In this document: in pieces, positions 39,878-55,900 of the stretch | How the letters are laid out: each line of letters opens with the position of its first letter | Position numbering within the stretch: position 1 is the first letter of the stretch | Assembly: GCF_051903065.1 (NCBI RefSeq) | Contig: NZ_CP178439.1 | DNA length: 64,000 bases | Reading direction: 5' to 3' (one strand) | From: Escherichia coli | Lineage (GTDB): Bacteria; Pseudomonadota; Gammaproteobacteria; Enterobacterales; Enterobacteriaceae | Position numbers and translations under genes: made by a program | The notes under the pieces: generated by a model | Databases searched by the model: none | What the model was told of the DNA's origin: nothing | Seen by the model: only the letters and a program-made list of their open reading frames with translations

Positions 39878-40007
39878 TTGCGTACTTCTAATGCCAGATA
39901 GTATAAATCAGGCGGTTCATAGCTTACGGGAGATGAATGACAGGCTTTGCCTTCGTGTTGAAACAAAAAATTGTTTCTTCCTTCTTACTATATATAGGTG
40001 ACCCCAA

Positions 40008-40880
40008 ATGTCTAAAAATAAAGCTCGCAGTAAAGCCCTTCATCAAACCTTTAGTGAAATTATTCCAGAGATGGATAAGGCGCTAAACAAACAGCTCTTA
40101 GAAGTTCTGATGAAATATACAGAACGTGATAATGAACTGATTGTTATTTTGAATGAGGACGGCCCAAATATCATTGAACTTAAGTCTCTTAAGCCTGTGT
40201 CTTTGTTGGCCGAAAAGCTTTCTGCTTATTCAAGCTATTATCATGTGGATGTTGTGGAGCTCGTGGTCAAGAAAATTGATTTCGAAGGAGCTTATAAGCT
40301 TCTTAAAGCTTCCCCAGATGTACCACTTTTTAAAAGCTTAACTGAACTGGATAAATATCTTGTTGAGGAGTTTGAAAAATACGGATTAAATTCATTTCTT
40401 GACGTGGATAATCTGGATTACTCACTTGAAAAAGCCAGTGAACTCAAAAATGAGCAGTTAATAAATTGGGTTTCGGACATCATTTGCAAACGTGAAAAAT
40501 TAACTTTACGTAAGCGTTTTGATGTCGCAGTAAAGGCCCACTACGAAAATGTAGAAAAAATGTATGATACCATTCGTCCGTTAATGAAAAAACTGGGTTT
40601 CCCAGAAGATCTCATGACGCACACCTTTAGTGAGTTAAGCGTTTTTGAAACTAAAGGATGGGACCATGCAATAAAATCGAAAATTGAGACTCTCGCTAAG
40701 CGTGAAACTCAATATTTAGATGATGCGGCTAAAGCAGAGAATCGACGTCTTGTAACAGAGAAGTTGGAGAACTCTTTAGCGATTGCACCAACTAAACCAA
40801 CAAGAAATTGGTTACATATTGCCGGAATTGCCTGTTTGGTAGTCTGCACGTTCATGTATGTAACTAATAAATTTATTTAA
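40008..40880 (+). CDS. Hypothetical protein with C-terminal membrane anchor
   Basis: 290 aa; C-terminal hydrophobic helix WLHIAGIACLVVCTFMYV. Confidence 0.55.
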   Translation: MSKNKARSKALHQTFSEIIPEMDKALNKQLLEVLMKYTERDNELIVILNEDGPNIIELKSLKPVSLLAEKLSAYSSYYHVDVVELVVKKIDFEGAYKLLKASPDVPLFKSLTELDKYLVEEFEKYGLNSFLDVDNLDYSLEKASELKNEQLINWVSDIICKREKLTLRKRFDVAVKAHYENVEKMYDTIRPLMKKLGFPEDLMTHTFSELSVFETKGWDHAIKSKIETLAKRETQYLDDAAKAENRRLVTEKLENSLAIAPTKPTRNWLHIAGIACLVVCTFMYVTNKFI

Positions 40881-40937
40881 TCCTGTTAAGGGGGAACCCT
40901 AACGGGGCTTCTCTTTGAACAAATCGAGGAGCGGAAA

Positions 40938-41315
40938 ATGTCATATCTTGAATATATCAATGAAGTAAAAGTGTCCGGGATAGTTATCAGTGCTGTGGAG
41001 AAAAAAATGACTGACCAGAGTATAGGTTTGTTAATAAAGCTCAAAAATAGGATGAAGACAGAAGTTGATGGTGAAATCACTGAGAGAGAATTTTCAGTTC
41101 AAATCAAGGTGTCGCCTGAAATGTATTCAACCTGTTTCACTGGTATAAATCAGGGTGATGAGTTGATGGTCTCCGGTTATATTGTTGTCGATACTATTAT
41201 GATTGAAGGGAGAGAACATCCTCTTGACTACATGAGAGTGGTAGCAACAAGTAAGTTGGCTCACATACCTAAACCTCTAAAAGGTTTTGGACAAAGTAGC
41301 TTTAATCAGATCTGA
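40938..41315 (+). CDS. Hypothetical small protein
   Basis: 125-aa ORF with an RBS-like GAGGAG upstream. Confidence 0.5.
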   Translation: MSYLEYINEVKVSGIVISAVEKKMTDQSIGLLIKLKNRMKTEVDGEITEREFSVQIKVSPEMYSTCFTGINQGDELMVSGYIVVDTIMIEGREHPLDYMRVVATSKLAHIPKPLKGFGQSSFNQI

Positions 41316-41375
41316 CATTAAACCCACCCTAAAGGGGAGAAATCCCTTCATGGGATTTCTCCTTTTGGAGTCCCC

Positions 41376-42353
41376 ATGAAACAAAAATTTAGGGCTACTG
41401 CAATAAGTAGTAATCAACTTAGTTTTTTTTCTATACTCGATATAGATGAAGATGAAATAACGCAAATAGTTGATTCACCCAAAGAGCATTTAAATGATGC
41501 TTACACGTCCGGATTAAACTTTAAATCAGAAGAAAGTAACATTTCTGAGATAAATTATGATTCTGAAAGGCGTGAAAATCACCTTTATGAAAAATCCAAA
41601 TTACTTAAAAATCAGATTTTGCATACAATTAATTTTGCAACAGAAACAGATTATCTATATACGGTTGAAGAATATAACCCAGATTTGGGTGGTCTGGTAA
41701 TAGAATGGACCCCTGAGGATGTGTATGTTGTTTTTCTATCCGCTATGGAAGAGTCTTTGGAAATCATTAAAGAACTAGTGTTGAGGAGAAAGTTATTCTT
41801 CAAAGATGACAATGGTAATATCACAGTGAATCCACTTTTAGAAGCTGAAACACGGTGGTATATGTCAAAATCATTTGAATACACTTGTTTATCTCATGGA
41901 CTTGATGCATGTGAATTTAGAGCGGAATTAAAATCATGGCTCTATTATCATTCGCATCGTTCGATTAGTGAAAACACGAAATTAGCTGAATGCAGGAATG
42001 ATGATGAAATCATTTTGCATGATTGCAATGACGATATGGGCTGGGACATCTTCTTTGATCAGGATTATTTAATGTCAGAAAAAAAACTGGCTGTTAAATG
42101 GACTGACAGGGAAATTATGGATGTTTACATAAAAGCTTTTAAATCCTCATTAGAGTTGTTTGACGAGCTTGTTTCATGTGATCTGTTAACTAAACGAAAC
42201 GCTTTTGGCAAGTTAGAAATCAATCCAATATTCGAAAATCATTTTGAATGGATCATGTCTGAAGCTTTTGAAATAGTGGGAAATCATCTTGGTTATAATG
42301 TGCCTCAAATCAGGAAACTGATGGCAACTATTTGCCAAATGAATCTCAAATAA
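41376..42353 (+). CDS. Hypothetical acidic protein
   Basis: 325-aa ORF preceded by a hairpin and RBS GGAG. Confidence 0.55.
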   Translation: MKQKFRATAISSNQLSFFSILDIDEDEITQIVDSPKEHLNDAYTSGLNFKSEESNISEINYDSERRENHLYEKSKLLKNQILHTINFATETDYLYTVEEYNPDLGGLVIEWTPEDVYVVFLSAMEESLEIIKELVLRRKLFFKDDNGNITVNPLLEAETRWYMSKSFEYTCLSHGLDACEFRAELKSWLYYHSHRSISENTKLAECRNDDEIILHDCNDDMGWDIFFDQDYLMSEKKLAVKWTDREIMDVYIKAFKSSLELFDELVSCDLLTKRNAFGKLEINPIFENHFEWIMSEAFEIVGNHLGYNVPQIRKLMATICQMNLK

Positions 42354-42410
42354 AATGCCACTGGCAAACATCTGCCAGAGGGCGGTGTTTGCATTTTACC
42401 GGAGTTAAAA

Positions 42411-43469
42411 ATGTCTAATGCCGCTATGAAGTTAAATGAAACATCTTCTGATGCTTATGAAAAATTAGAAGCTCTTCTTTCCCCGGATGTTATAAAGTTA
42501 AAACATTATGTGGATAAAGGTGAGTATCTTTTAGTTCTAGCAAAGGACCTTTTTGGTATTCCAGAAATGGATCCAAAGATGGCTGTGCCTGTTTTCAAAA
42601 CTAAAACCTCGTATCGAGCTCCGCTGAACAAAGACTACATACCAAATCCCCGAATACTTGAACAAGTGGTTAAACTGCTTATCAGTCCGGATATAGATTT
42701 AAGTGTGTGTCTTAAAGGTGAGTCCGGTTCTGGCAAGACTGAAATGGTAATGTACATTAGCCACATGATGAATTGGCCGCTGACAATTAAGCAGATCAAC
42801 AGCAATATTCGAGTTGATGAGCTTGAAGGTGAGCGCAGTCTTAATGGTGGTAATACAGGTTTTGTACACAGCGATTTGGTAACGGGATTTCGTAATGGTC
42901 ACCTCATTCTTCTGGATGAAGTGGACAAAATCGATCCTGATACGGCAGCAAAACTTCACATGCCCATTGAACGTAAGCCCTGGTCACTCAGTGCTAATGG
43001 TGGTGAGGTTATAACTGCTAATGGCTACACGCGATTTATTGGTACTGCAAACACAAACATGAGTGGAGGCGCTCGCCGGTTCGTTTCTTCTCAACGTCAA
43101 GATGCAGCTTTTATAAAGCGGTTCTTGATAGTTGAAATGGAGAAGCCCGACAAAGTTGCTTTAACCAATGTGCTTACTAAACGATATAGCTCTTTGCCTT
43201 TTCAGGTCATTGAGAAGTTCGTAAGAGTAGCGATTGCAGTAAATGACTCTGGTACAGAAGACAGTGTGATGGATATTCGTCAATTAGTAGCTTGGGTTGG
43301 CACGTCGATGACGTTAAAAACCTTTAGTCTTCTTGACACTTTCAAAATAGCTTTTGCTTCTGCTTTACCTTTACATGTGGTCGATCTTGTTCTTCAAGCT
43401 ATAGATCTTTCTCTTGGCGAAGACAAGGATAAATCGCTGGAGTATTTCACAGCAAAAAAGTCGAGTTAG
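42411..43469 (+). CDS. AAA+ ATPase, MoxR/CbbQ/CobS-like (AAA_5 type)
   Basis: 352 aa; Walker A GESGSGKT; Walker B ILLDEVDK; sensor-like TANT. Confidence 0.8.
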   Translation: MSNAAMKLNETSSDAYEKLEALLSPDVIKLKHYVDKGEYLLVLAKDLFGIPEMDPKMAVPVFKTKTSYRAPLNKDYIPNPRILEQVVKLLISPDIDLSVCLKGESGSGKTEMVMYISHMMNWPLTIKQINSNIRVDELEGERSLNGGNTGFVHSDLVTGFRNGHLILLDEVDKIDPDTAAKLHMPIERKPWSLSANGGEVITANGYTRFIGTANTNMSGGARRFVSSQRQDAAFIKRFLIVEMEKPDKVALTNVLTKRYSSLPFQVIEKFVRVAIAVNDSGTEDSVMDIRQLVAWVGTSMTLKTFSLLDTFKIAFASALPLHVVDLVLQAIDLSLGEDKDKSLEYFTAKKSS

Positions 43470-43837
43470 ATGGGATTTGTTATGAAACCTCTGATATTTG
43501 TATCTCAGAGTTATCCCATCTTGAATTTAGTGCGTTTTTAAGTACGGATGGTGCTGCTACCATTGCTATAGCAAAAAACGGAACTAATTTTACTGGACTT
43601 ATGCAACTGAATAACGACTATTCTTTATTGTTTTATCATGATGGTAAAATAAATATGGAAGGTCTGATTAAACAAATGGAATTAAAAGGTTATATGTATC
43701 AGGGAGCAATGGGCAATGATGATGTTGTTGCTGAGTTTCCCGGTATTCTTTTAATTTCACCAGAGTAGCTTTAATATCAACCCTATCGGGAAATCTTTCC
43801 CGTTGGGGAGGGTTTCCCCTTTTTTTTGGAGAAACCC

Positions 43838-44965
43838 ATGACTTTAAATACTTCAATGCTTAACAAAGTATCTGCAAAACAAATCTCTGAGAATTTTGCA
43901 AAATCATATCCAGATTTACTGGAAGGTGCAGTTATAACAAAAATTGAAATAAGTGGCTGTCAAGGATCGCGTCGAACCGATAAAATCGATTTGTCTTATG
44001 ATGGAGATGATATTACGGATCAAAAAAGCGTATCTAAAAGCGAAGTACGCTGGATTGACATAAAAGCCCTTAGCTTCAAAAGTACGATTACCAGCAGAAT
44101 ATCAACTCTTTGCTCACGCTTGTGCATCCGCTATAGCAATATGTGGATTTTACCAGTATCCAGTATGGAAGAGTTTCTGGAAGGGGCCCAAGAGATTGAA
44201 CGAGAGTTTCAGGCAGGTATTCAAAACGTTGTAGACAATTATGAGATGCATATTGAGGCTGAAAAAAATAGAAGCCCAAGAATGTCTTCTTTGATTGATC
44301 AGTTGAAATTAACTAAAGATGATTTCATAAAATCCTTTAGATTTAATATTGCTCACTTTATTCCTTTTACGCCTATTAGCGTTGAAGGTGATGAAACCCA
44401 GGACTACTATCAGGAACAATTGATAACAGATCTGGCAGAAGAAGCAATGAAGGTTTATGAAAAAATTAGCAAAAATAACAATTTGCGCTCAAGTACTATT
44501 GACCGACTGAAGCAAATGCAAAATAAGATCATTAGCTTCATGTTTATACATAAAGAGGCGGCAGTACTTGCAGAAGCTATAAAACACATAATGAATAATT
44601 TACCTAAAGGTGCCATTTCTGAACCTCGCGACGTTGCGGTGTTACAGCAGTGGTTTTATTTCATGAGTGATGCTTCAATGTTAAAGCGTATTATTTCAGG
44701 AGAGCAAAAGGTTACTGACTGGTTGGAATCTATTACCAGATCATTTAATCAAAGCTCACAAACAGAACCGAACGCGCTACAGAACACAGGTATTGAAGCT
44801 ATTTTAGATTCAACAAATGTGTTCCAGGTTGAACCTGTCGTAGAGAACGATATAAATAACAGCACGTTTTCAAACACTGATCCTGTAGCTGAACCTGAGA
44901 AATCAGTTTCGCAACAGGAAGACAATGTTGAAAATGGTTTTGATATCGAGCTCAAAGGCTGGTAA
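43838..44965 (+). CDS. Hypothetical protein between the AAA+ ATPase and the vWA protein
   Basis: About 375 aa; ATG at 43838 after RBS GGAG (track start 43826 is a TTG). Confidence 0.55.
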   Translation: MTLNTSMLNKVSAKQISENFAKSYPDLLEGAVITKIEISGCQGSRRTDKIDLSYDGDDITDQKSVSKSEVRWIDIKALSFKSTITSRISTLCSRLCIRYSNMWILPVSSMEEFLEGAQEIEREFQAGIQNVVDNYEMHIEAEKNRSPRMSSLIDQLKLTKDDFIKSFRFNIAHFIPFTPISVEGDETQDYYQEQLITDLAEEAMKVYEKISKNNNLRSSTIDRLKQMQNKIISFMFIHKEAAVLAEAIKHIMNNLPKGAISEPRDVAVLQQWFYFMSDASMLKRIISGEQKVTDWLESITRSFNQSSQTEPNALQNTGIEAILDSTNVFQVEPVVENDINNSTFSNTDPVAEPEKSVSQQEDNVENGFDIELKGW

Positions 44966-45042
44966 CTGTTTGCTTTATTAAAAACCCCAGATGGGTACTT
45001 CACCATCTGGGTGAGTACCCCTTTTTTATAAAGAGGTATTCT

Positions 45043-47055
45043 ATGAAATTAGATCTTAAATCATCACCGCGCCATATTAAGCGTTTACAGAATATAGCAA
45101 AAGTCATTAGCGGCTTAGGCGATGTAAGAGTTGTAATAGACGACAATACCAAAGGACCGTATTTTGATCCTGTAAATAAAGTTTGTGTTTTACCAAACGG
45201 CGATTATAGCGATGATGACTTTGTCAGTCTGATTGAAGGTTTTACCTGTCATGAAGCTGGTCATGGTCGCTATACCGACAGCGAGGTTTACAGTGACGCC
45301 TTTAATAGTGTTCTCAAGTCATCTGAAGGGTTTACACGCTTCGATGACGGAATGAATGCAGAGTTTGAGAGCCTCGCTGAGAAACGTAAAGCTTATAGCA
45401 GGGCAAAACGTCTTACCGGGCTTATAAATCTGTTCGATGATGTACAGATGGAAGAGAAGGTTGGTAACGATTATCCGGATGCAAAGCGGCGGCTTGCAGC
45501 CACTTACGCACTGATGGTTAAAGCCGGAAGGATGACTCCTGATATATCTTCTCGTCCGGAAAATCCTGTCCTATTTATTGAGTGGTATCTGCTTAACTCA
45601 TTGCGAGTAAAAGTCCTTCAGCAGGCAGGTCACAAAGAAACACTCGATCCGTTTTTTGACTATGCCCAAAAGATACTTTCTCCAGTAATTTCTGATGTTG
45701 AGGAAATTTTTCATGATGCTCTTGGTTGTGAAAATACTCAGGGCTGTGAATCCCTTGCTCGTAAGACCCTGGCTCTTTTAGAGAGACTGCGGGATGAGGC
45801 AAGGGAACAACAGCAGCAGACAGAGCAGGAGGAGCAGGAGGCATATGATGAATCCGAGACCGAGACCGAGACCGATACCGAATCAGAAGATAAATCGCTT
45901 GAGTCGACTGATAGTCGTGAGGATGATTCTGAGGACGATAGTGAAGGTCAGGCAGATACTTCCGATAACTCTGATCTTGCTCAAGAGGGATGTTCTGAGC
46001 CTTCAGAACTTGCTGAAGATAACGAGGGAAATAATGAACCCACCGGTGGCAATCCCACAGGTGATAACATTATTGAAGACGATACTGATGCGATTAACCC
46101 TTCCGAGAGTGAATCAGATGAAGCCAGTTCGACTAACGTTGAAGATGAAAGTAACTTTTCATCGGCTCAATGGGAGATACTGGCAGATTTGTTGGATGCC
46201 TTTCTTGGCAGTGATGAGGATAGCGAAGATTATCACGATGCTTTGGCTAAAGAGATTGAAGGTATTGCATCAAAAGTATCCGATGACGTGAAAGCCGAAT
46301 TCGGTGCTTCTGAATGGGATATCCCTGATCTCCTTATCGATTTGAATGTTTACAATGAGGCTTTGTCTCTGAGTCATTCAATCGGTAGCGACTTGTCTGT
46401 TTTACAGCAGGTTAAAATGCGTGGCCGAAACAAAACTCATGAGCGTGGAATTACCTTCGATGGAAATCGATTAATTCTGTCACCAATGGGAGTTCGTGAT
46501 GTCTTCAGAGCTCAAAGCGAATCTAAAAATAGAGGGCATGTTGGCCTCGTATTAGTTCGTGATATTTCAGCGTCAATGGCTAATGATGAAAGATATATTC
46601 ATGCCATTAAGTCAGATCTTGCTTTATCGATGGCCGCTGAAAGTTTGTCAAAAATGCATGTCTCCAATATAGTCTTTCCCTTCAAGGAAAGTGAATTTGA
46701 GATTATCAAAACGTTTGATCAAAGCGTTGAGGAATCTCTATCGAAATTCACTCTTGGATGTAAGGGTTATTATACCCCTACGGGATCGGCTTTAATGGCA
46801 GCTGTTGATCTGTTACTTGACAGCCAATTCGATAGGAAAATAATTTTTCTTATAACTGATGGTTATCCGAATAAATCGGAATTTACTATCGGCGAAGTTA
46901 TGGAAAAGGCTAAATGTAATGGAATAGAAATCGTTGGTGTTGGTATTAAGACTGATGAAATAATTGGTTTTGAAACGGACACTTTCGTAACAGTTGATGA
47001 TACTTCTTTATTGTCTATTGAAGTCAGTAAGCTAGTTCATCAAATACTTTCTTAA
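45043..47055 (+). CDS. von Willebrand factor A (MIDAS) domain protein with N-terminal HExxH and an acidic linker
   Basis: 670 aa; HEAGH near residue 70; long D/E/S/T-rich linker; C-terminal vWA with D-x-S-x-S (DISAS), Thr (YTPTGS) and Asp (ITDGYP). Confidence 0.8.
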   Translation: MKLDLKSSPRHIKRLQNIAKVISGLGDVRVVIDDNTKGPYFDPVNKVCVLPNGDYSDDDFVSLIEGFTCHEAGHGRYTDSEVYSDAFNSVLKSSEGFTRFDDGMNAEFESLAEKRKAYSRAKRLTGLINLFDDVQMEEKVGNDYPDAKRRLAATYALMVKAGRMTPDISSRPENPVLFIEWYLLNSLRVKVLQQAGHKETLDPFFDYAQKILSPVISDVEEIFHDALGCENTQGCESLARKTLALLERLRDEAREQQQQTEQEEQEAYDESETETETDTESEDKSLESTDSREDDSEDDSEGQADTSDNSDLAQEGCSEPSELAEDNEGNNEPTGGNPTGDNIIEDDTDAINPSESESDEASSTNVEDESNFSSAQWEILADLLDAFLGSDEDSEDYHDALAKEIEGIASKVSDDVKAEFGASEWDIPDLLIDLNVYNEALSLSHSIGSDLSVLQQVKMRGRNKTHERGITFDGNRLILSPMGVRDVFRAQSESKNRGHVGLVLVRDISASMANDERYIHAIKSDLALSMAAESLSKMHVSNIVFPFKESEFEIIKTFDQSVEESLSKFTLGCKGYYTPTGSALMAAVDLLLDSQFDRKIIFLITDGYPNKSEFTIGEVMEKAKCNGIEIVGVGIKTDEIIGFETDTFVTVDDTSLLSIEVSKLVHQILS

Positions 47056-47126
47056 TAAACTCTACCCAATCGGGGCAAAAGGCCCCGGTGGGTCTTTTTG
47101 CTCCATGAAGGAATAAGGAGCAAAAT

Positions 47127-47348
47127 ATGACTCAGATAAAAACTTACCGTGTAGAACATGAAAAAGTCGGTGCGATGCATAAAGTCCGTATTTTCGGACG
47201 TGTTGGTGAAGTTATAAGCAATGATAGCCCTCAGGAAAGAATCTTCCGCGAAGTCACTATAGCGGAGGGTAATAGCCAGCAGGCTGCGTTACTTGTAGAT
47301 AACTACATACAGCGTCTTGAGAATAATGGCTTCACGACTGAAGCATAA
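47127..47348 (+). CDS. Hypothetical small protein
   Basis: 73-aa ORF with RBS AAGGAG upstream, between two hairpins. Confidence 0.45.
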   Translation: MTQIKTYRVEHEKVGAMHKVRIFGRVGEVISNDSPQERIFREVTIAEGNSQQAALLVDNYIQRLENNGFTTEA

Positions 47349-47461
47349 ATGTTGAGGGCCCCCGGGCCCTCTTTCTTAAATTCTGCGTTGTGGGTTTCTC
47401 CCTGTCTTCTGCACCGCAGAAGGCATTGAGAAACTCACAATGCCAGATAAGAGAGATCATC

Positions 47462-48694
47462 ATGACTTATGCATCCCCGGCTCTTCGTCGTAATCCACAG
47501 GAAGTATCTGAACACTTTATTAAACTCGTTCATGCTCGAATTGCTGAAGTGTCTGGCTGGAAGTATATATTCGAAAGAATACCTGCTTTCAAAGACGCTT
47601 GTGCAAAAGCCCCGAGCCAGGTTCCTTGCCCGTTTACTGGCGCAGGGAAATCGAAGTTTCGTTTCCGACAAAAAGACCTTTATACCGGATGTGCGATCCA
47701 TAATGACTTTCCGGTAAATGAGTTTTGCGACGGAATTGATGTTCTGGCGAAATATTATGAATTAAGTAAAACGCAGACTTGCAAAAAGATTCTCTCAGAT
47801 TTTTTCGGGATGGATCTGCATGCTCCGTTAACTGACGCCGACATTGAAAATGAACGACGCTATAAATCAGCAGTTCGTGCCACAGAAACTCTTGACCGAG
47901 AGGAAGTGGCAAAGCGAATGCGAAAACTTGATGTGATGTATCACTATACCGGTGAAATCAAGCCTAATACTCCTGTTGCTTTGTACCTCCGTAATCGTGG
48001 GATCTCCCGCTTACTGAGTCACTTACCAAAGGATTTAGGCTTTAATAACCGGATCTACTATTGGGATAAAGATAAGCAGAAATCGATTATCTATCCGGGA
48101 ATGATTGCGATCTATCGTGACACCCGAGGTCGGCCTCTGACTATTCATAGAACATACGTAGACAAAAATGGTGATAAGGCACCTGTAGAAAATCCAAAGC
48201 TGATGATGAAGCCTCCTGCCGATATGACAGGTGGCTCAATTCAGTTGTTTGACCCTCACTATGATTCAGGTAGTTCGACCTGGACACTGGGAGTGGCTGA
48301 AGGGATCGAGAACGCGCTTTCTGTTGTAGAAGCGACTTCAACACCATGCTGGGCAGCCAGCTCCGCATGGTGCCTTGAAAACGTTACTGTTCCTGATTTT
48401 TTACTGCCTCCGCCGGATGTAAAATCTATAAACTTTTATATCTGGGCGGATAAGGATATTGCTAACTCACAAGGCACTCGTGCCGGTATTGAAGCTGCTC
48501 AGCGACTTCAAAGCCGCATGGTTGAGTTTTTGGCTAAACGATATCCCGCATCAAAGCTGACAATTGAAGTCTTCGAACCAGCACAAGATATTCCTGATGG
48601 GAAAAAGGGTATCGACTGGAACGATGTTCTCCAGTTAACAGGGCAGGATGGATTCCCGATTCACTGGGCTCCTGAATGTCTTAATCAGCTGTAA
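47462..48694 (+). CDS. TOPRIM-domain primase-like protein with N-terminal Cys-rich zinc-ribbon-like region
   Basis: CPFTGAGKSKFRF...GCAIHND Cys cluster; TOPRIM-like EGIENALSV (Glu) and IWADKD (DxD). Confidence 0.55.
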   Translation: MTYASPALRRNPQEVSEHFIKLVHARIAEVSGWKYIFERIPAFKDACAKAPSQVPCPFTGAGKSKFRFRQKDLYTGCAIHNDFPVNEFCDGIDVLAKYYELSKTQTCKKILSDFFGMDLHAPLTDADIENERRYKSAVRATETLDREEVAKRMRKLDVMYHYTGEIKPNTPVALYLRNRGISRLLSHLPKDLGFNNRIYYWDKDKQKSIIYPGMIAIYRDTRGRPLTIHRTYVDKNGDKAPVENPKLMMKPPADMTGGSIQLFDPHYDSGSSTWTLGVAEGIENALSVVEATSTPCWAASSAWCLENVTVPDFLLPPPDVKSINFYIWADKDIANSQGTRAGIEAAQRLQSRMVEFLAKRYPASKLTIEVFEPAQDIPDGKKGIDWNDVLQLTGQDGFPIHWAPECLNQL

Positions 48695-48964
48695 CAACGA
48701 TAACTCCCCCGCTTTTTGCGGGGGGGGTTATCTTATCAATATTATATTTTAAAATTGTATTGATAAGATAACCGCTTTCCTTCGTGATAATTACCTGCCT
48801 TTAAGGTCTTTTCACGGCTGAGATGCTTGCTCAGTTAAATAAATGTGCGGTACTACTGGCTATGGTCGGTTGTATGACATGGTTATTCCATAAACTATTA
48901 AAACCCATAACGGGAGTATTACCGTTATGGTGATGCTCGTCGTTTTACATCGGAGAGCATTTTA

Positions 48965-49486
48965 ATGAATTTTCAAATTAACGAAGTTTTTAATAAATTT
49001 GCTGCTGTTATAAAATCGCGCATCGTCAATGAACCATCGTCATGCTATTTGCTGCATGATAATGAGATAGATATAACGATTTTGAAACATAGCATATTAG
49101 AAAATGACAGAAACCTGTTGTACGTAGTTCGTCCTTCAGGAACGTGTTTGTTGCGTTGTGACAAATATTTCTATCCGAAATATTATCTTCGTTGCCGTGG
49201 AGATTATAAGTCATTCATATATGTCCATCTTGATCTACATAGTGGTGAAGCTAAAGAAATCACATGGGAGCAAGCAGACGATATGCTGTCTAGTCCAGGA
49301 AAACCCCCATTAAAAGGGAATCTTGGACGATTTGAGTATATAAAAGTTGTGGTTGAGGACCTTCGTATTCGAGGTTACGCTGATTATCTTCCTGCGTATA
49401 ATCTTGATGACCTTCGCCGTTTTGCCTTACAGGACGACCGCCCATCCCTTGTCAGATACATTGACAATGTCATGGCAACGGTCTGA
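48965..49486 (+). CDS. Hypothetical protein
   Basis: 173-aa ORF; no recognisable motif. Confidence 0.5.
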   Translation: MNFQINEVFNKFAAVIKSRIVNEPSSCYLLHDNEIDITILKHSILENDRNLLYVVRPSGTCLLRCDKYFYPKYYLRCRGDYKSFIYVHLDLHSGEAKEITWEQADDMLSSPGKPPLKGNLGRFEYIKVVVEDLRIRGYADYLPAYNLDDLRRFALQDDRPSLVRYIDNVMATV

Positions 49487-49564
49487 TTGATTGCTAATTG
49501 ATTTACATATTTTCCCTGATGGCCAACCTGCATCAGGGAGGCCTCAATAACGAATGGAGGCTGT

Positions 49565-50443
49565 ATGAAGTTAGCTACGGACCTGGTAAAAGCTATTTTG
49601 ATTAGAAATGGCGTTGAACCAGTAAATATAAGCGAATCATCTAAGTTATCTTTGAAACAACCACTGACAGAACTTAAATTCAGTTTATATTTGCGAACTG
49701 AGCATTTATCTCACTTCCTACCCGGTTATGTTTATTCTATAAAAGAATGTCCACTGTCATATGACATCGGGATCGAAATTCAGAAAATCTTCGAAAGTTT
49801 ACATTTGTTAAACGAAGAATTTGAATCCCTCGGTTTTGTTTCTGTATGGATAGAAATGCATCAAAGCATTTTTGAACAAAGTCGGTTTAAGAAAAGTAAC
49901 TTTACTTTTCGGGAGGAAGAGGTCGAGCTTGCTAAAGGGCTTGTTTGTTCTCACAATTCACAAATAAGTAATGCGGCTTATTTCTGGCTTCAGCACTTTG
50001 AGGAGTTTATGATTTATGTTCGTAATAAGCTTATCGACCTCTTTCGAGAGGCCTATGACCTGATCCTTGGAATGCAGCAAGTATTTTTCATTCGGGAAAA
50101 GGAAGAGCTGTTGAAAACTATAAGTTATGGCGATGAGCTGTATGAGGTGAAATTCATGGCGGCTGAGCTTTACTCTATCGAACAGAACTTAAAGTGTTCT
50201 GAATCGATAAGTACAAAATCTCAAGCTTCGGCATATATTAACCGCATCCGTGAGTTTGTGCGTTCGGGGTGGAGGCAGGGCTATATAGTCTGCCATCATA
50301 AGCGAAGTAATCAAATTTCATCATTGTCATTACCGATGTACTTGAAAGATACGTCAGGCCGAAGTGCTCGAAAGCGAGTAAAACGTCTTATATCTTCTAC
50401 AGTTTGTGGTAGAAATAAAGATTTAGGTCTTACAGATTTTTAA
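49565..50443 (+). CDS. Hypothetical protein, possible distant member of the tandem paralogue family
   Basis: 292 aa; N-terminal pattern LVKAILIRNGV resembles the other members; hairpins on both sides. Confidence 0.5.
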   Translation: MKLATDLVKAILIRNGVEPVNISESSKLSLKQPLTELKFSLYLRTEHLSHFLPGYVYSIKECPLSYDIGIEIQKIFESLHLLNEEFESLGFVSVWIEMHQSIFEQSRFKKSNFTFREEEVELAKGLVCSHNSQISNAAYFWLQHFEEFMIYVRNKLIDLFREAYDLILGMQQVFFIREKEELLKTISYGDELYEVKFMAAELYSIEQNLKCSESISTKSQASAYINRIREFVRSGWRQGYIVCHHKRSNQISSLSLPMYLKDTSGRSARKRVKRLISSTVCGRNKDLGLTDF

Positions 50444-50513
50444 TTAAATTATACCCATGTGGGGATCACACCCCATATGGGAGTGATCCCTTTTTTTATT
50501 GAGAGAGGATCAC

Positions 50514-51269
50514 ATGAAAATTATCGAAAAAATCATTAATGCCTTTTTGGTTGTTCAACATAAAAAAATACAGGTTAAAAACATTACATTTTTAGACAAT
50601 GGGCAGGGCATGTTCTCTGGTATGTCTTTTGATGCTGATGTTTCACTGGAGTTTATGTATGAATCAGCAAAAGCATATAGTTCTTGTTTCTGTGATATTC
50701 CCTTTCCAGGTTTTGAAGATGCAAATCTGGAGGAAATTACGAAATTTCAATTAGATGCTCTGAAGCAAAGAAAGAATCATTCTTTCTTTGTTAACCATTT
50801 GAGGTTTCCTATAGTTTTAAGGGAAGGGTGCAAAATCGAAAGAGGAGAAGTCTATTCAATTTCGAATTGCACTTATAATAAAGAAAGATTGCAGTATCTT
50901 TTTTCTCAGGATATTTACGGTAAGTTGTATAATTCCTTAGAGAAAGAATTAAGCTCGTTTTTCTCATTTATCAATGTTGAGGTGCACGAGTTGTTAAAAG
51001 ATGCTGTATGCTTTGCATTAAAAATCCTGAATAAGATATCTTTGGATACACCTGAAAGACTTATTAAAGCTTTTAATTATCGTGACTGGTATTGTAGTTA
51101 CGATGTTGAGCTTTTTAGGAAAGGCTTACCTGGTCATATTCTGGAAGAGCTCATTGCTCCAGATATCTTACTTTCAGACCTTAACGGTTGTAGAAAAATA
51201 CTTAGAAATGCAAAACGATTTCTAAATGGACATACACAAACCAATTGTGTTTATATTAAATATGAATGA
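50514..51269 (+). CDS. Hypothetical protein, possible distant member of the tandem paralogue family
   Basis: About 251 aa; ATG at 50514 after RBS GAGAGG; N-terminal IEKIINAFLVV pattern. Confidence 0.5.
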   Translation: MKIIEKIINAFLVVQHKKIQVKNITFLDNGQGMFSGMSFDADVSLEFMYESAKAYSSCFCDIPFPGFEDANLEEITKFQLDALKQRKNHSFFVNHLRFPIVLREGCKIERGEVYSISNCTYNKERLQYLFSQDIYGKLYNSLEKELSSFFSFINVEVHELLKDAVCFALKILNKISLDTPERLIKAFNYRDWYCSYDVELFRKGLPGHILEELIAPDILLSDLNGCRKILRNAKRFLNGHTQTNCVYIKYE

Positions 51270-51517
51270 TGGTTGGGGCCTGTTGATACCTCACACTCAG
51301 CTAAGTTGATGTCTGACAAAGAAATTAATAACCGAAGTGACTTGAAGAATTTTTCAAAGGTCTTTTTCAAAGAGTGTTTAAGTTCTGGTAAGTCGGAATA
51401 TGAAAACCATCTTAGTGAAAAAGAACATGCGCTTCGCTATAATTATTAATTAAAATTATTTTCTCCCATAGGGATTTCTCCCTATGGGAGAAATCCCTCT
51501 ATTAAGAGGGTATTGAA

Positions 51518-52438
51518 ATGAATGCTATACAAAAGTTAGTTGAATCTATTCTTGTTAAAATGGGTTTTGTTGGCGCTGTAGTGGAAAATATATATTTGGA
51601 TTCAAAACCATTTCGGCATATTCGATTTGTGGCTGATATTCCAGTAATATCTTTTCTACCTCATTTGGTGAAATATCTTAAGGGTGCAGACCATCTTTAC
51701 AGTGGTAACGATGATTTGCATCCTCTTTTCATTTATTTTTCCGAAGCGGCTACATTAAAAGCAGGTCCTGTAAATCTCGCGAACTTTCGTTTTGAAGTTT
51801 CTATAGCTTCAACTCATTTACGACTGGTCTCAGAGCAGCCTGATTTGCTTTTCAAAGGATTTAACCGGGATAATCTAGAATACGTTTATTACCGCTCAGA
51901 TTTGGCCTCTAAGGATCTTATACTAGGCCTTGTTGAACACGGTTCTCCTTTCATAAAACATCTACATGGACTTATACAAAAGCGAATTTTAAACGAGTTC
52001 TCTCTGATTTTTTCTGTTCTTGAAAAGATTTTAGAAAGCGCGAAGCCACAAATTCTTGCTTGCTTCCATAGTGTTGATTATGAAATGAACGTAAAAATAA
52101 TAGCCGAAGCTATACCTGAAACTGTATCTAATCAGATAGTCACATCTGATTATATAGTTAATTCTATATCAGATGCGGACAAGTTTATAAATCATGTTCG
52201 TCGCTATTTAGCAGGCAGGGTAATGAAGAGGCGGATATACGCTGAATTAGATGTTTGTGAAGAAACATCAAGTATTTCACTAGTGAACTTAGGATGCTTT
52301 ACGTCTCCTCTGCTCGTTACGGAATATCAAATGTTTAAGCCACACTCTTCAGGGTTATATCGAAAAGCTATAAACAACTCCTTAAAACAGTTCAAACCAG
52401 AAATGCATGTACCTTCTGAAGAACTCTTTTATAATTAA
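51518..52438 (+). CDS. Hypothetical protein, possible distant member of the tandem paralogue family
   Basis: 306 aa; N-terminal QKLVESILVKMGF pattern; hairpins on both sides. Confidence 0.5.
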   Translation: MNAIQKLVESILVKMGFVGAVVENIYLDSKPFRHIRFVADIPVISFLPHLVKYLKGADHLYSGNDDLHPLFIYFSEAATLKAGPVNLANFRFEVSIASTHLRLVSEQPDLLFKGFNRDNLEYVYYRSDLASKDLILGLVEHGSPFIKHLHGLIQKRILNEFSLIFSVLEKILESAKPQILACFHSVDYEMNVKIIAEAIPETVSNQIVTSDYIVNSISDADKFINHVRRYLAGRVMKRRIYAELDVCEETSSISLVNLGCFTSPLLVTEYQMFKPHSSGLYRKAINNSLKQFKPEMHVPSEELFYN

Positions 52439-53357
52439 TCTAACCCATCCGGGAACCTGCTTCCCGGTGGGAAGCACTTCCTTTTTAGTCATGAGGTAGT
52501 GTAAATGTTTAAAGAATCTGACCACGTGGAATTTGTTAGTGCCTTTCTTTATCAAAATTTAGGCCTTAATGTTTCCGCTGACGATATAACCGTTCAATTA
52601 TCTGATACTTCGTTCGACAAAGTAACCTTTGATTACGATGTAGATATCGATAATTTAAATTGTATGTTGGATCTCTACATATCTGAGCTAATAAAGCACA
52701 ACGCATCTTACTCCGATTCTATTCTTTTGAAACAAAAAATAATTTATTTTCTTGGAGTATTTAAGAATTTCGGATTTTTTACGTTTGATATTCGCGGATA
52801 TAGTAATACTTTAAGCCCAGTTAAAGTTATTGATATTGTTTCAATGATTATTAATGACTGTGAAGAGTTATCTAAAGCTAATTCTTCTACTGATGCTATA
52901 AGAAATCTTTATCTCGATAAAATGAAGGTGGATGGGAAAGTGTTAGTTGCGAAATTTGCACTTAAACAGTTTTTTCATTCCGACTTTGGTGACTTTATCT
53001 CATTTGTCGAGAAAAGAATTACAGATTGTCTTAATGAAACTTTAAGGATTATCAAAGCTGTTGAACATGGCTTTGTACGTGTAGGGCAGCATAAGATTAA
53101 TCGCCGTATTAATGATGACTTAAAGTTATGCATTGATTTCAATACTGATGATTATCCGGCAAATATGCCAGATATATATATTAAGTTTAACGATACATTT
53201 GATGGGAACGGGGCGTTATATTGTGACAATGATGCCCTCATATCCCTCTATACCGATGTTGCTTCAATTATCAATGTGCCGGTGATGATGGAAGTAAGAT
53301 TGATCAATAAAAGAGGGCGTGTTGTCTGTGATTCTTCGCATTCAACTTACGTATCTC

Positions 53358-54414
53358 GGCTTTGTTGAATAAATCGAACTTTTGCTGAGTTGAAGGATCA
53401 GATCACGTATCTTCCCGACAACGCAGACCGTTCCGTGGCAAAGCAAAAGTTCAAAATCACCAACTGGCCCACCTACAATAAAGCCCTCATCAACCGTGGC
53501 TCCATAACTTTCTGGCTGGATGATGAAGCTATTCAGGCCTGGTATGAGTCAGCAACACCTTCTTCACGAGGCAGACCTCAGCGCTATTCTGACCTTGCCA
53601 TCACGACTGTGCTGGTCATTAAACGCGTATTCAGGCTGACCCTGCGCGCTGCGCAGGGCTTTATTGATTCCATTTTTTCTCTGATGAACGTTCCGCTACG
53701 CTGCCCGGATTACAGCTGTGTCAGCAGGCGGGCAAAGTCGGTTAATGTCAGTTTCAAAACGCCCACCCGGGGTGAAATCGCACACCTGGTAATTGATTCC
53801 ACCGGGCTGAAGGTCTTCGGTGAAGGCGAGTGGAAAGTCAAAAAGCATGGCCAGGAACGCCGCCGTATCTGGCGTAAGCTGCATCTCGCCGTTGACAGTA
53901 AAACACATGAAATCATCTGCGCTGACCTGTCGCTGAACAACGTTACGGACTCAGAGGCCTTCCCCGGGTTAATCCGGCAAACCCACCGGAAAATCAGGTC
54001 AGCCGCCGCCGATGGCGCTTACGATACCCGGCTATGTCACGATGAACTGCGGCGTAAGAAAATCAGCGCGCTTATCCCTCCCCGAAAAGGTGCGGGTTAC
54101 TGGCCCGGTGAATATGCAGACCGTAACCGTGCAGTGGCTAATCAGCGAATGACCGGGAGTAATGCGCGGTGGAAATGGACAACAGATTACAACCGTCGCT
54201 CGATAGCGGAAACGGCGATGTACCGGGTAAAACAGCTGTTCGGGGGTTCACTGACACTGCGTGACTACGATGGTCAGGTTGCAGAGGCTATGGCCCTGGT
54301 ACGAGCGCTGAACAAAATGACGAAAGCAGGTATGCCTGAAAGCGTGCGTATTGCCTGAAAACACAACCCGCTACGGGGGAGACTTACCCGAAATCTGATT
54401 TATTCAACAAAGCC
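53358..54414 (+). mobile_element. IS903-like insertion sequence (IS5 family), complete, 1057 bp
   Basis: 18-bp inverted repeats GGCTTTGTTGAATAAATC at 53358 and GATTTATTCAACAAAGCC ending 54414; perfect 9-bp direct repeat ACGTATCTC at 53349-53357 and 54415-54423. Confidence 0.9.
53435..54358 (+). CDS. tnpA: IS903 transposase
   Basis: VAKQKFKITNWPTYNKALINRGSITFWLDDEAIQAWY matches the IS903/IS102 transposase as I remember it; GTG start gives 307 aa. Confidence 0.85.
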   Translation: MAKQKFKITNWPTYNKALINRGSITFWLDDEAIQAWYESATPSSRGRPQRYSDLAITTVLVIKRVFRLTLRAAQGFIDSIFSLMNVPLRCPDYSCVSRRAKSVNVSFKTPTRGEIAHLVIDSTGLKVFGEGEWKVKKHGQERRRIWRKLHLAVDSKTHEIICADLSLNNVTDSEAFPGLIRQTHRKIRSAAADGAYDTRLCHDELRRKKISALIPPRKGAGYWPGEYADRNRAVANQRMTGSNARWKWTTDYNRRSIAETAMYRVKQLFGGSLTLRDYDGQVAEAMALVRALNKMTKAGMPESVRIA

Positions 54415-54680
54415 ACGTATCTCTCGAAAGTAATGACCGATACAGAGTAACTGATCGCACATTACTAATAACTGAAGCTTTTGACGATTTTCGTAACGCG
54501 TCTCAATGATCCTTTTGCTTCAGTCCAAAAAAGTAACTTTGGTTGGCTGAAGACACTTGTCTATGACAATGTAAAATCTGTCGCTGGCATCTTCTTTTAG
54601 CTTAACCAAATTTTTATCTAACCCAGTGGGGAAGTCGCTTCCCTTCTGGGGCACTTCCTCTCAAATTCGAGGTAGTGTAT

Positions 54681-55637
54681 ATGACACATTCATCTGATGA
54701 TAAAAACTATGTCCGAGCAGTTCTGAGTTATCTTGGCATAGATTTTGATGAGGCGGATATAGTATTAAGTGTTTGCCATTGTCAAAGTGACGAGCTTTCT
54801 TTTACCTGTAATATCAAAGCTATTGAACTCAAGAATGCTGTTGATTTATATGTCGATAGTATCTCTGAGAATGAAATAGAAGCTTTAAACAGAGAATCTT
54901 TAAAATCGCGACTCTGTTACTTTCTTGAGGTGTTTGACGCAGTCTCTGGTCAGTACCTTGAAATTTCAGGAAAACACTTTGCAACTAGTCGTTTTGAATA
55001 TGATGATGTTTGTAGTGAAGTTCTTAGCATGTCTAATGATGTTTCTCAGTCGAAAGGTTATGACCGGGATGAATATAACAGACTGATGCAGGTTGATGGT
55101 CAGGTTATGATTGCCCGTTTTGCTTTGCAACAGTTCTGGGATACTCATTTTATTGGACTAATAACATTTGTATCTGAGTCTATAACATCGAGCCTCTATA
55201 AAGCTTATGAAACTTTTAGTGATATTAGTTTGGCTTGCTATAAACTGAGTGAATATTCTTATTCACGCTCTATCAACAGTGAATTGACCCTTAATATTTC
55301 ACTTAAAGAAAATGACTTCTGTGAGGACCTATCTGATTGCTATATGGAAGATGAGGCTTTACCTTCTGGTAGGGTAATTTCTCGACGCAACAATGACTCC
55401 ATAATAAGTATTTATGAGAGCTATGCTGCGGCTTCTTATATTCCGATGATTGCATCTTTGGAAGTCGTTGATGAATACGGCGAAGTGGTTACTGACCTCT
55501 GCCATACCGTTTATGTTTCAGAGTTAACCGGTGGGCGGATTAAAATCCACGACCGTAATGACTTAGTATCTGAAGTTTTCGATAACCTAAGAAATTTAAA
55601 TCTTGCAGTTGGAGATTCAGTTTCACAAGCTGCTTGA
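54681..55637 (+). CDS. Hypothetical protein, intact paralogue of the IS903-disrupted gene
   Basis: About 318 aa; aligns along its length with the 52505 product; same upstream context GAGGTAGTGTA(A/T)ATG. Confidence 0.6.
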   Translation: MTHSSDDKNYVRAVLSYLGIDFDEADIVLSVCHCQSDELSFTCNIKAIELKNAVDLYVDSISENEIEALNRESLKSRLCYFLEVFDAVSGQYLEISGKHFATSRFEYDDVCSEVLSMSNDVSQSKGYDRDEYNRLMQVDGQVMIARFALQQFWDTHFIGLITFVSESITSSLYKAYETFSDISLACYKLSEYSYSRSINSELTLNISLKENDFCEDLSDCYMEDEALPSGRVISRRNNDSIISIYESYAAASYIPMIASLEVVDEYGEVVTDLCHTVYVSELTGGRIKIHDRNDLVSEVFDNLRNLNLAVGDSVSQAA

Positions 55638-55900
55638 TTCTTTCCCTGATTTTGATTTTTTCTCACATACTCTTATGGCACGGTTTCCGTGCCTTTTTTT
55701 TGCCTCGCTTACAAGCGTCTACTCCTCTTCTACCTATCCCACCTTACATCACCACTTAAAATCTATCTTTCTAATTCCATTATCCTTTTCGTAGCCTCTA
55801 ATGCTCTGGTATGAACATACTCTTTAAACTCAAAAAAGTGCTATTAACGAAAAAAAATCCCTAAAGAGATTTGTATACTGTTCTCAACCAAGGAGAGCTC

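Follow-up and report, generated by a model that had tools for sequence, protein, structure and literature searches.

In the ermC and cat translational attenuators, a 3' helix holds the Shine-Dalgarno (SD) sequence, and its anti-SD strand can instead pair with an upstream segment, with the 1:2 and 3:4 pairings set against a 2:3 pairing. In the repY/repZ pseudoknot of ColIb-P9 and the tap/repA system of R1, translation of an upstream frame opens an inhibitory helix. FourU and ROSE thermometers are leaders of about 60 nucleotides (nt) with two hairpins, in which U residues pair with the SD. The subject of this analysis is a family of twelve short elements in a 64,000-nt stretch of Escherichia coli DNA (contig NZ_CP178439.1, hereafter the window), which is IncHI2 plasmid backbone. 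The elements are 56-69 nt long, lie on the plus strand between 40,878 and 54,683, and stand one before each of twelve consecutive genes, ending at the start codon. With moderate confidence, on the basis of predicted folds and comparative sequence data, they are read here as cis-acting, bistable translational gates, one per gene, that would sequester the SD, and not as a row of terminators.

The elements have the same RNA topology as the ermC and cat attenuators, but they carry no leader peptide or antibiotic link and occur as twelve copies in one array. Like repY/repZ and tap/repA, they are plasmid-borne, the downstream SD is sequestered, a hairpin loop pairs beside the SD, and an upstream stop codon lies near the structure. 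They differ from these systems in that the stop codon is usually 9-11 nt from the first hairpin, out of reach, and in that two of them (e8 and e13) lie in long untranslated regions without a conserved upstream open reading frame (ORF). The two-hairpin layout and the U:SD pairing are shared with FourU and ROSE leaders, but the helices of the elements are too stable, no melting is predicted, and neither family is matched in Rfam. The kinetic folding of the MS2 maturation gene and the metastable hairpins of hok offer an analogy, in that isoenergetic hairpins could set SD access in nascent versus mature RNA; the difference is that the off-state hairpin is transcribed first in the present elements. 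Intrinsic terminators and attenuators resemble the elements in the GC-rich hairpin followed by T residues, seen in about half of the IncHI2 copies, and in the antiterminator-like overlap, but the U-tract of the elements is not conserved, their minimum-energy hairpin has none, and read-through is seen on microarrays. Repeated stem-loops also flank single genes, and may mediate paralogue duplication, in the promoter early stem-loop (PeSL) cassettes of T4-type phages, in morons, and in repetitive extragenic palindromes (REP) and bacterial interspersed mosaic elements (BIME); the elements differ from all of these in having no promoter, a single orientation, one array, and synteny across lineages. 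A full-text literature search found no description of the elements.

Each element follows an A/U-rich spacer after the upstream stop codon and begins with S1, a GC-clamped hairpin (CCC-N-GGG ... CCC-N-GGG) built from a basal CCC/GGG clamp, 3-5 variable and often imperfect pairs, a top GGG/CCC clamp, and a loop of 4-9 nt. The segment X' begins 0-2 nt after S1 and is followed by a short A/U-rich loop and then by the SD region. X' and the SD region form the helix S3. In most elements, whichever the lineage, the minimum-energy fold is a uniform pair of hairpins that stops 3-8 nt short of the start codon. X' is also complementary to a segment termed X, made up of the loop and upper 5' arm of S1, and X is a near copy of the SD flank. 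X and X' can therefore form an alternative hairpin, S2, of 11-14 bp and -13.6 to -21.5 kcal/mol, which excludes both S1 and S3. In e10, X is GGGATCAC, X' is GTGATCCC, and the SD flank is GGATCAC. The consensus obtained with MAFFT is nnAACCCnTnnGGGGA...CCCnnnTGGGG...AGG...ATATG.

The minimum free energies of the twelve elements range from -17.8 to -36.3 kcal/mol (RNAfold), and their folding z-scores against dinucleotide shuffles from -1.8 to -7.3, with values of -2.8 or lower in 10 of 12. S1 is present in the minimum-energy fold of 10 of the 12 elements in the window. Folding favours the sense over the antisense strand in 36 of 51 copies, including 11 of the 12 window elements, and G-U pairs make up 7.7% of all pairs, which points to a single-stranded molecule of the sense strand, most simply mRNA. 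A first-pass annotation, made from the letters alone, had listed GC-rich hairpins with T-runs before nearly every gene of this region, and RNAfold reproduces a hairpin at each of its sites. Most of the sites belong to the family; those at 47352-47370 and 48704-48728 are ordinary terminators, and the members at 42357 and 48905 had been missed. The shared 11-mers to which it drew attention are exact (GGAGAAATCCC at 41336 and 51487, GGGATTTCTCC at 41352 and 51471), and its view of a related palindromic family rather than independent terminators agrees with the shared consensus and with the recovery of the elements by a single covariance model. Its single hairpins must be redrawn, as each element consists of two adjacent hairpins and an overlapping alternative one. 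The twelve elements, all on the plus strand, are as follows.

e1: 40878-40940, plus strand; S1 40882-40906, S3 40907-40932; gene start at 40938; weak covariance-model match (E 0.31); orthologues present in 5 other lineages.
e2: 41323-41378, plus strand; the fold is dominated by an S2-type hairpin, GGAGAAATCCC/GGGATTTCTCC; start codon at 41376.
e3: 42354-42413, plus strand; S1 42357-42383; atypical, with S2 (GCAAACA/TGTTTGC, then ATTTT) as the consensus fold and the SD mostly open; precedes the CobS-like AAA ATPase gene (42411).
e4: 43777-43840, plus strand; S1 43781-43808, S3 43810-43837, S2 43788-43818 followed by T8; precedes the DUF3150 gene (ATG 43838).
e5: 44981-45045, plus strand; S1 44986-45011, S3 45013-45041; precedes the CobT-like VWA gene (45043).
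e6: 47061-47129, plus strand; S1 47064-47093, S3 47096-47125; precedes the gene for a 73-amino acid (aa) protein (47127).
e8: 48900-48967, plus strand; S1 48905-48930, S3 48932-48961; gene start at 48965; a 5' untranslated region element that closes a 270-nt intergenic region.
e9: 49509-49567, plus strand; S1 49513-49539, S3 49540-49562; precedes the paralogue gene at 49565.
e10: 50450-50516, plus strand; S1 50454-50481, S3 50483-50513; start ATG at 50514.
e11: 51460-51520, plus strand; S1 51460-51493, S3 51495-51510; precedes the paralogue gene at 51518.
e12: 52440-52507, plus strand; S1 52444-52471, S3 52474-52502; precedes the paralogue gene at 52505.
e13: 54618-54683, plus strand; S1 54622-54650, S3 54651-54678; precedes a paralogue gene (ATG 54681).

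The pairing of the three helices is supported by several comparisons. In a 67-sequence alignment, which was fitted to the covariance model's own structure, S1 plus S3 score 0.42 for covariation; shuffles score 0.21 and slid partners 0.10-0.17, and none of 500 shuffles comes up to 0.42. Both sides change in 16 of the 20 S1 and S3 pairs of this alignment, and in 8 of 9 for S3 alone. Orthologue alignments made from sequence only gave compensatory changes at 41 of 176 predicted pairs, with 89% canonical cells compared to about 45-70% with a slid partner. The X:X' duplex reaches -17.3 kcal/mol with its own partner and -9.9 kcal/mol with the partners of other elements, a difference that repeats in three plasmids, and the corresponding values for X':SD in the window are -11.1 and -6.6 kcal/mol. 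None of 20,000 partner permutations reached the observed mean. When partners were swapped between orthologues, the own partner was the better one in 275 cases and the orthologue's in 70 for S1, 260 and 88 for S2, and 236 and 116 for S3; the orthologue pairs are non-independent samples, which weakens these counts as support for the gate. Single elements illustrate the same coordination. In R27, e10 shows a triple change of C-to-T, G-to-A, and C-to-T in X, X', and the SD flank, and in e6 a CGAC insertion in the loop is matched by GTCG in X'. As far as comparative data go, these results establish a conserved, covarying helix that contains each gene's SD, and a conserved competing helix for the anti-SD strand.

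The family is restricted to one array that is co-regulated with conjugation. A descriptor composed of an S1-type hairpin with X:X' and X':downstream pairing was scanned over the whole 64 kb. It returned 12 elements, all on the plus strand at 40,882-54,622, and elsewhere only a few weak matches, mostly in the GC-rich DNA of insertion sequences (IS). A covariance model built from 41 copies gave 10 matches in the window with E from 3e-11 to 4e-5, the weak match at e1, and none elsewhere. By this model each plasmid has 10-12 copies, all of which end at a start codon, and the best match in the other 150 kb of R27 has E = 0.25. The descriptor, run over 174 of the 180 kb of R27, gave no convincing matches other than the twelve orthologues. 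The architecture is kept at orthologous sites in about ten IncH lineages, with protein identity down to 35%. Elements stand at the orthologous junctions of R27 (IncHI1, about 73% nucleotide identity), pCFR-eb27, and a Pseudocitrobacter contig, and they also occur in three more lineages, with DUF3150 proteins that are 68%, 55%, and 45% identical. Klebsiella IncHI1B/FIB-type plasmids, in which the VWA protein is only 35% identical, have elements at five junctions. A scan of genome contigs with DUF3150 yielded 2 loci only, and locus L006 was left out as a frameshift-ridden assembly. Rfam gave no matches over the whole window at the gathering threshold, and only spurious microRNA and long non-coding RNA matches over 39.6-55.8 kb at E up to 5.

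The predicted energies suggest how the helices would compete. The means are -17.3 kcal/mol for S1 alone, -16.9 kcal/mol for S2 alone, and -29.2 kcal/mol for S1 plus S3. In 11 of 19 elements, S2 is at least as stable as S1 or falls short of it by no more than 0.3 kcal/mol, and the minimum-energy fold of transcripts that end just after X' is S2 in 37 and S1 in 30 of 67 cases. S1 and S2 are thus balanced, and S3 tips the full-length RNA into the SD-sequestered state. Opening the region from -15 to +13 is predicted to cost 8.2-15.3 kcal/mol in the array genes (mean 11.6), compared to a median of 7.3 kcal/mol in 33 other plasmid genes (p = 0.006). The SDs of the array genes are stronger (-7.1 versus -4.8 kcal/mol, p = 8e-4) and well spaced.

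Several observations weigh against a bistable gate. The unpaired probability of the SD core is 0.25 in the array and 0.37 in the other plasmid genes, a difference with p = 0.08. When the base of S1 is masked, the SD opens by more than 50% in just 14 of 51 elements, and the predicted nested-path barrier from S1 to S2 is high, at about 20 kcal/mol. The atypical e3, together with e2 in IncHI2, is mostly in the S2 or open state. With fixed columns, the covariation of S2 is 0.25 as observed and 0.30 when slid by -1, a comparison blurred by register shifts between elements. Finally, the spacing of 9-11 nt between stop codon and S1 lies just beyond the helicase reach of a terminating ribosome.

If the gate reading holds, each element would be a cis-acting RNA leader within a long polycistronic mRNA, one of two or three that belong to the HtdA/TrhR/TrhY (conjugation) regulon. 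In the off state, S1 plus S3, the pyrimidine-rich or T-rich X' would pair with the SD, and ribosome binding would cost a predicted 8-15 kcal/mol. In the on state, S2, X' would pair with the upper part and loop of S1, and the SD would be left free. S1 plus S3 would be the default, given that S1 comes first in transcription and faces so high a predicted barrier to S2; by the same barrier, a trigger would be needed to reach S2. Whatever prevents or opens S1 would switch the cistron on, and the candidates are a factor reading the conserved ACCC...UGGG clamp, a helicase, and events at the upstream stop codon. For each of the twelve genes, translation would thereby be gated separately from transcription, cistron by cistron. 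The T-runs would exist mainly as the anti-SD strand, and the long ones of e4, e5, and e10 may add some termination when S2 forms.

A clamp-recognising factor is the most attractive, though unproven, idea for the trigger. Its fullest form, which is tentative and rather doubtful, makes the twelve elements operators of a dedicated trans-acting factor (protein or RNA, plasmid- or host-encoded) that would flip S1 plus S3 to S2 via the ACCC...UGGG-clamped S1, and the array a post-transcriptional regulon whose translation is timed in IncH donors or recipients. Temperature had no predicted effect as a trigger, with an SD unpaired probability of 0.15 to 0.18 from 20 to 50 C. A relay by terminating ribosomes was also considered. 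The helicase of a terminating ribosome reaches roughly +11 from the P site. The distance from the upstream stop codon to S1 is 9-11 nt in 23 of 55 cases and 5-13 nt in 36 of 55. The relay was set aside, with 9-11 nt being too long and the S1-base masking result as given above, and is kept as a weak possibility. A leader peptide starting from an NTG in the 3' arm of S1 was rejected, since the start codon is present in only 35 of 67 elements and the frame is open in 42 of 67, compared to 44 and 49 in controls. Short ORFs ending just before e8 or e13 are present in IncHI2 and R27 but were rejected, as they are not conserved in the loci L014, L015, and L016. An H-type pseudoknot with coexisting S1 and S2 was rejected on geometry, as the linker between the S1 3' arm and X' would be only 0-2 nt judging by the sequence. 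Palindromes bound by a transcription factor on double-stranded DNA are disfavoured, because variable stem positions covary, G-U pairs are used, and the strands are asymmetric.

Among the other explanations, conditional intrinsic terminators of the attenuator type survive best, though they are unlikely. Under this explanation, S2 with a U-tract would terminate transcription and S1, forming first, would act as the antiterminator, with graded or conditional read-through. The overlap of S1 and S2 is the classical antiterminator/terminator topology, S2 has the length and stability given above, a terminator scan flags e4, e6, e8, and e12, and at least 5 T within the 8 nt after S2 are found in 5 of the 10 scored elements in the window. 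The same count falls to 25 of 67 elements overall and to 2 of 9 in R27, so the U-tract is not conserved. S1 is followed by X' and not by a U-tract, and the conserved partner of the T-run is the purine-rich SD; orthologues often carry another pyrimidine-rich sequence with the pairing kept, such as CCCTTTATCAAATAAAGG in R27. The early formation of S1 and the high predicted barrier to S2 also speak against termination as the rule, and some termination at the long T-runs of e4, e5, and e10 is possible.

Expression data from R27 bear on the same question. In the microarrays of this plasmid by Gibert et al. 2020 (PMC7366339), the cluster "from ORF R0204 to ORF R0002" rose 5-23 fold at 25 C. By gene order this cluster corresponds to the first nine array genes (R0003 being trhI and R0005 trhN). 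Mutation of htdA derepressed the entire array (R0198-R0210 plus R0001 and R0002) by 19-115 fold, with a flat signal of about 10-25k over the nine genes from R0002 to R0204 and of 2.7-6.7k over the six genes from R0203 to R0198 (PMC7366339). The signal is thus flat across e1-e6 and across e9-e13, and the only step, a drop of about 3-fold, lies at the bidirectional terminator after the toprim gene; these are probe-level array data for IncHI1 and not 3'-end mapping in IncHI2. The first-pass annotation had taken the hairpins with T-runs for one terminator per gene, reminiscent of moron-style insulation. In several cases hairpin and T-run do correspond to S2, but the T-run occurs in only half of the scored window elements, and with S1 lacking a U-tract, the T-run pairing with the SD, and the array signal flat, neither a terminator for each gene nor insulation is supported. 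It had also named read-through at most sites and absence of shared sequence as findings that would speak against its family; read-through is suggested by the flat R27 arrays (PMC7366339), but shared sequence is present. Three conventional structures lie near the elements.

Terminator-like hairpin after the 73-aa gene: 47354-47371, plus strand; conventional and outside the family; orthologues present.
Terminator after the toprim gene: 48704-48726, strand not assigned; strong, bidirectional, and outside the family.
Terminator closing the array: 55677-55693, plus strand; from the terminator scan.

A role in mRNA processing or stability is slightly less credible still. RNase E would cut the AU-rich spacer, and S1 would serve as a protective 5' hairpin or as a 3' barrier for the upstream cistron, giving segmental stability to an AT-rich operon mRNA. 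Every junction does have a stable GC-clamped hairpin beside an A/U-rich single-stranded spacer, and the array signals per gene vary non-monotonically within one unit, up to about 7-fold in the wild type and about 2.5-fold in the htdA mutant. This explanation leaves unaccounted for the covariation of X' with both the SD flank and the S1 apex, and also the register lock of every element to a start codon.

Structures acting in single-stranded DNA are very improbable. They could be priming or single-strand initiation (ssi)-like sites, or recombination sites, on the transferred strand, possibly for the array's toprim protein, or substrates for paralogue duplication and loss; the first-pass annotation had raised single-strand structures used during transfer. 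Consistent with this are the strict strand specificity of the elements, the primase-like protein encoded in the array, the array's co-regulation with conjugation, and a paralogue number that varies between lineages, with each copy having its own element. Against it, each element is tied to its gene's SD and start codon, the sense strand folds better than the antisense one, no -35/-10 site overlaps any of the 12 elements in a promoter scan, no attC core sites are present, and the synteny is stable across lineages rather than cassette-like. The array is also roughly 62-75 kb from the relaxase gene mobH, which lies in Tra1 (distance measured in R27), and is apparently outside a leading region. 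More specific versions were rejected for related reasons: for leading-region ssi sites and single-strand promoters, the elements are 56-69 nt, have no promoter-like overlap, and belong to an array that adjoins Tra2; for integron attC sites (core RYYYAAC ... GTTRRRY), GTTRRRY is found in no element and gene order is stable; and for REP/BIME-like dispersed palindromes, all copies lie in one array on one strand. The weakest explanation, simple melting thermometers of the FourU/ROSE kind tied to thermosensitive IncHI conjugation, fits the two-hairpin layout, the U-runs pairing with the SD, and the 5-23 fold higher array RNA at 25 C, but can scarcely be maintained with an SD accessibility that is predicted to stay unchanged from 20 to 50 C, an S3 of 9-12 bp and -8 to -15 kcal/mol that is too stable for melting, no FourU or ROSE match in Rfam even at E up to 5, and an induction that occurs at low temperature and is transcriptional, via HtdA.

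IncHI1, IncHI2, and Klebsiella IncHI1B-type plasmids are major carriers of mcr, NDM, extended-spectrum beta-lactamase, and typhoid multidrug resistance. Next to Tra2, their conserved backbone contains about 15 kb to which no function has been assigned and which is switched on with conjugation in R27 (PMC7366339). The paper PMC4853401 does not mention the ORFs of the array. A bistable RNA module of 65 nt before each array gene, kept even between lineages with only 35% protein identity, points to a further level of control that acts after transcription, and the compensatory pairs in S1, S2, and S3 offer handles on when and where the array genes are made. A cis-acting, SD-sequestering RNA switch, as the models suggest, would be unusual for its deep conservation and for the reuse of one architecture about a dozen times within a single operon system. 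The elements are a candidate new cis-regulatory family for Rfam.

The array lies directly downstream of the Tra2 genes trhN and trhI, and all of its genes are co-oriented. Over 1,000 Enterobacteriaceae plasmids, pXJW9B277-HI2-N among them, match the 40-55 kb region at 99-100% identity. The array begins with three hypothetical genes, which are followed by the genes for the CobS-like AAA ATPase, the DUF3150 protein, and the CobT-like VWA protein, then by those for the 73-aa protein, a primase-like toprim protein (phrog_510), a 173-aa protein, and five paralogous proteins of about 290 aa. The CobS-like, DUF3150, and CobT-like genes form a trio at 42411-47055 that is co-induced with the conjugation genes in R27. 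The five paralogue genes are in tandem at 49565-55637, and each has its own element. The first paralogue (49565-50440), the one that was scanned, gave no family match. There are five paralogues in IncHI1 and IncHI2, three or four in L014, two in L016, and none in the Klebsiella type. The paralogue gene at 50514-51269 appears shortened in comparison with R27 (256 versus 311 aa), leaving a 248-nt gap before e11. An IS903B copy at about 53.4-54.4 kb (roughly 53370-54420) interrupts the array between two paralogue genes, upstream of e13, and is missing from many related plasmids, whose matches cover 93%.

Other conserved sequences were observed in and around the array. Ahead of the first array gene, the segment at 39920-40007 (CATAGCTTACGGGAGATGAATGACAGGCTTTGCC ... 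TATATATAGGTGACCCCAAATG) shows strong conservation across IncHI1, IncHI2, and pCFR, and is likely where the HtdA/TrhR/TrhY-controlled unit has its promoter and operator. Before e8, the intergenic region of 270 nt (48729-48900) is conserved in nucleotides, for example at GGTCGGTTGTATGACATGGT, and probably holds a promoter for the second half of the array; a 16-codon ORF within it is not conserved in more distant lineages. A hairpin of about 60 nt at 47390-47450 (GCGTTGTGGGTTTCTC...GAGAAACTCACAATGC), just upstream of or overlapping the start of the toprim gene, is conserved in sequence even in the Klebsiella lineage and is probably a separate regulatory RNA structure. A near-palindromic 12-mer, AAAAGTAACTTT (AAAGTWACTTT), has 36 matches in the window at no more than 1 mismatch, compared to 1.1 expected, with sites that include 986, 7909, 24865, 32499, 39022, 39702, 49892, 54529, and 58722. 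Every IncH locus retrieved contains exact copies, with at least 27 of them in 150 kb of R27. There is one copy upstream of e13, and in locus L014 a copy replaces element e9. Judging from this distribution, the 12-mer is a candidate operator of a plasmid-wide regulator.

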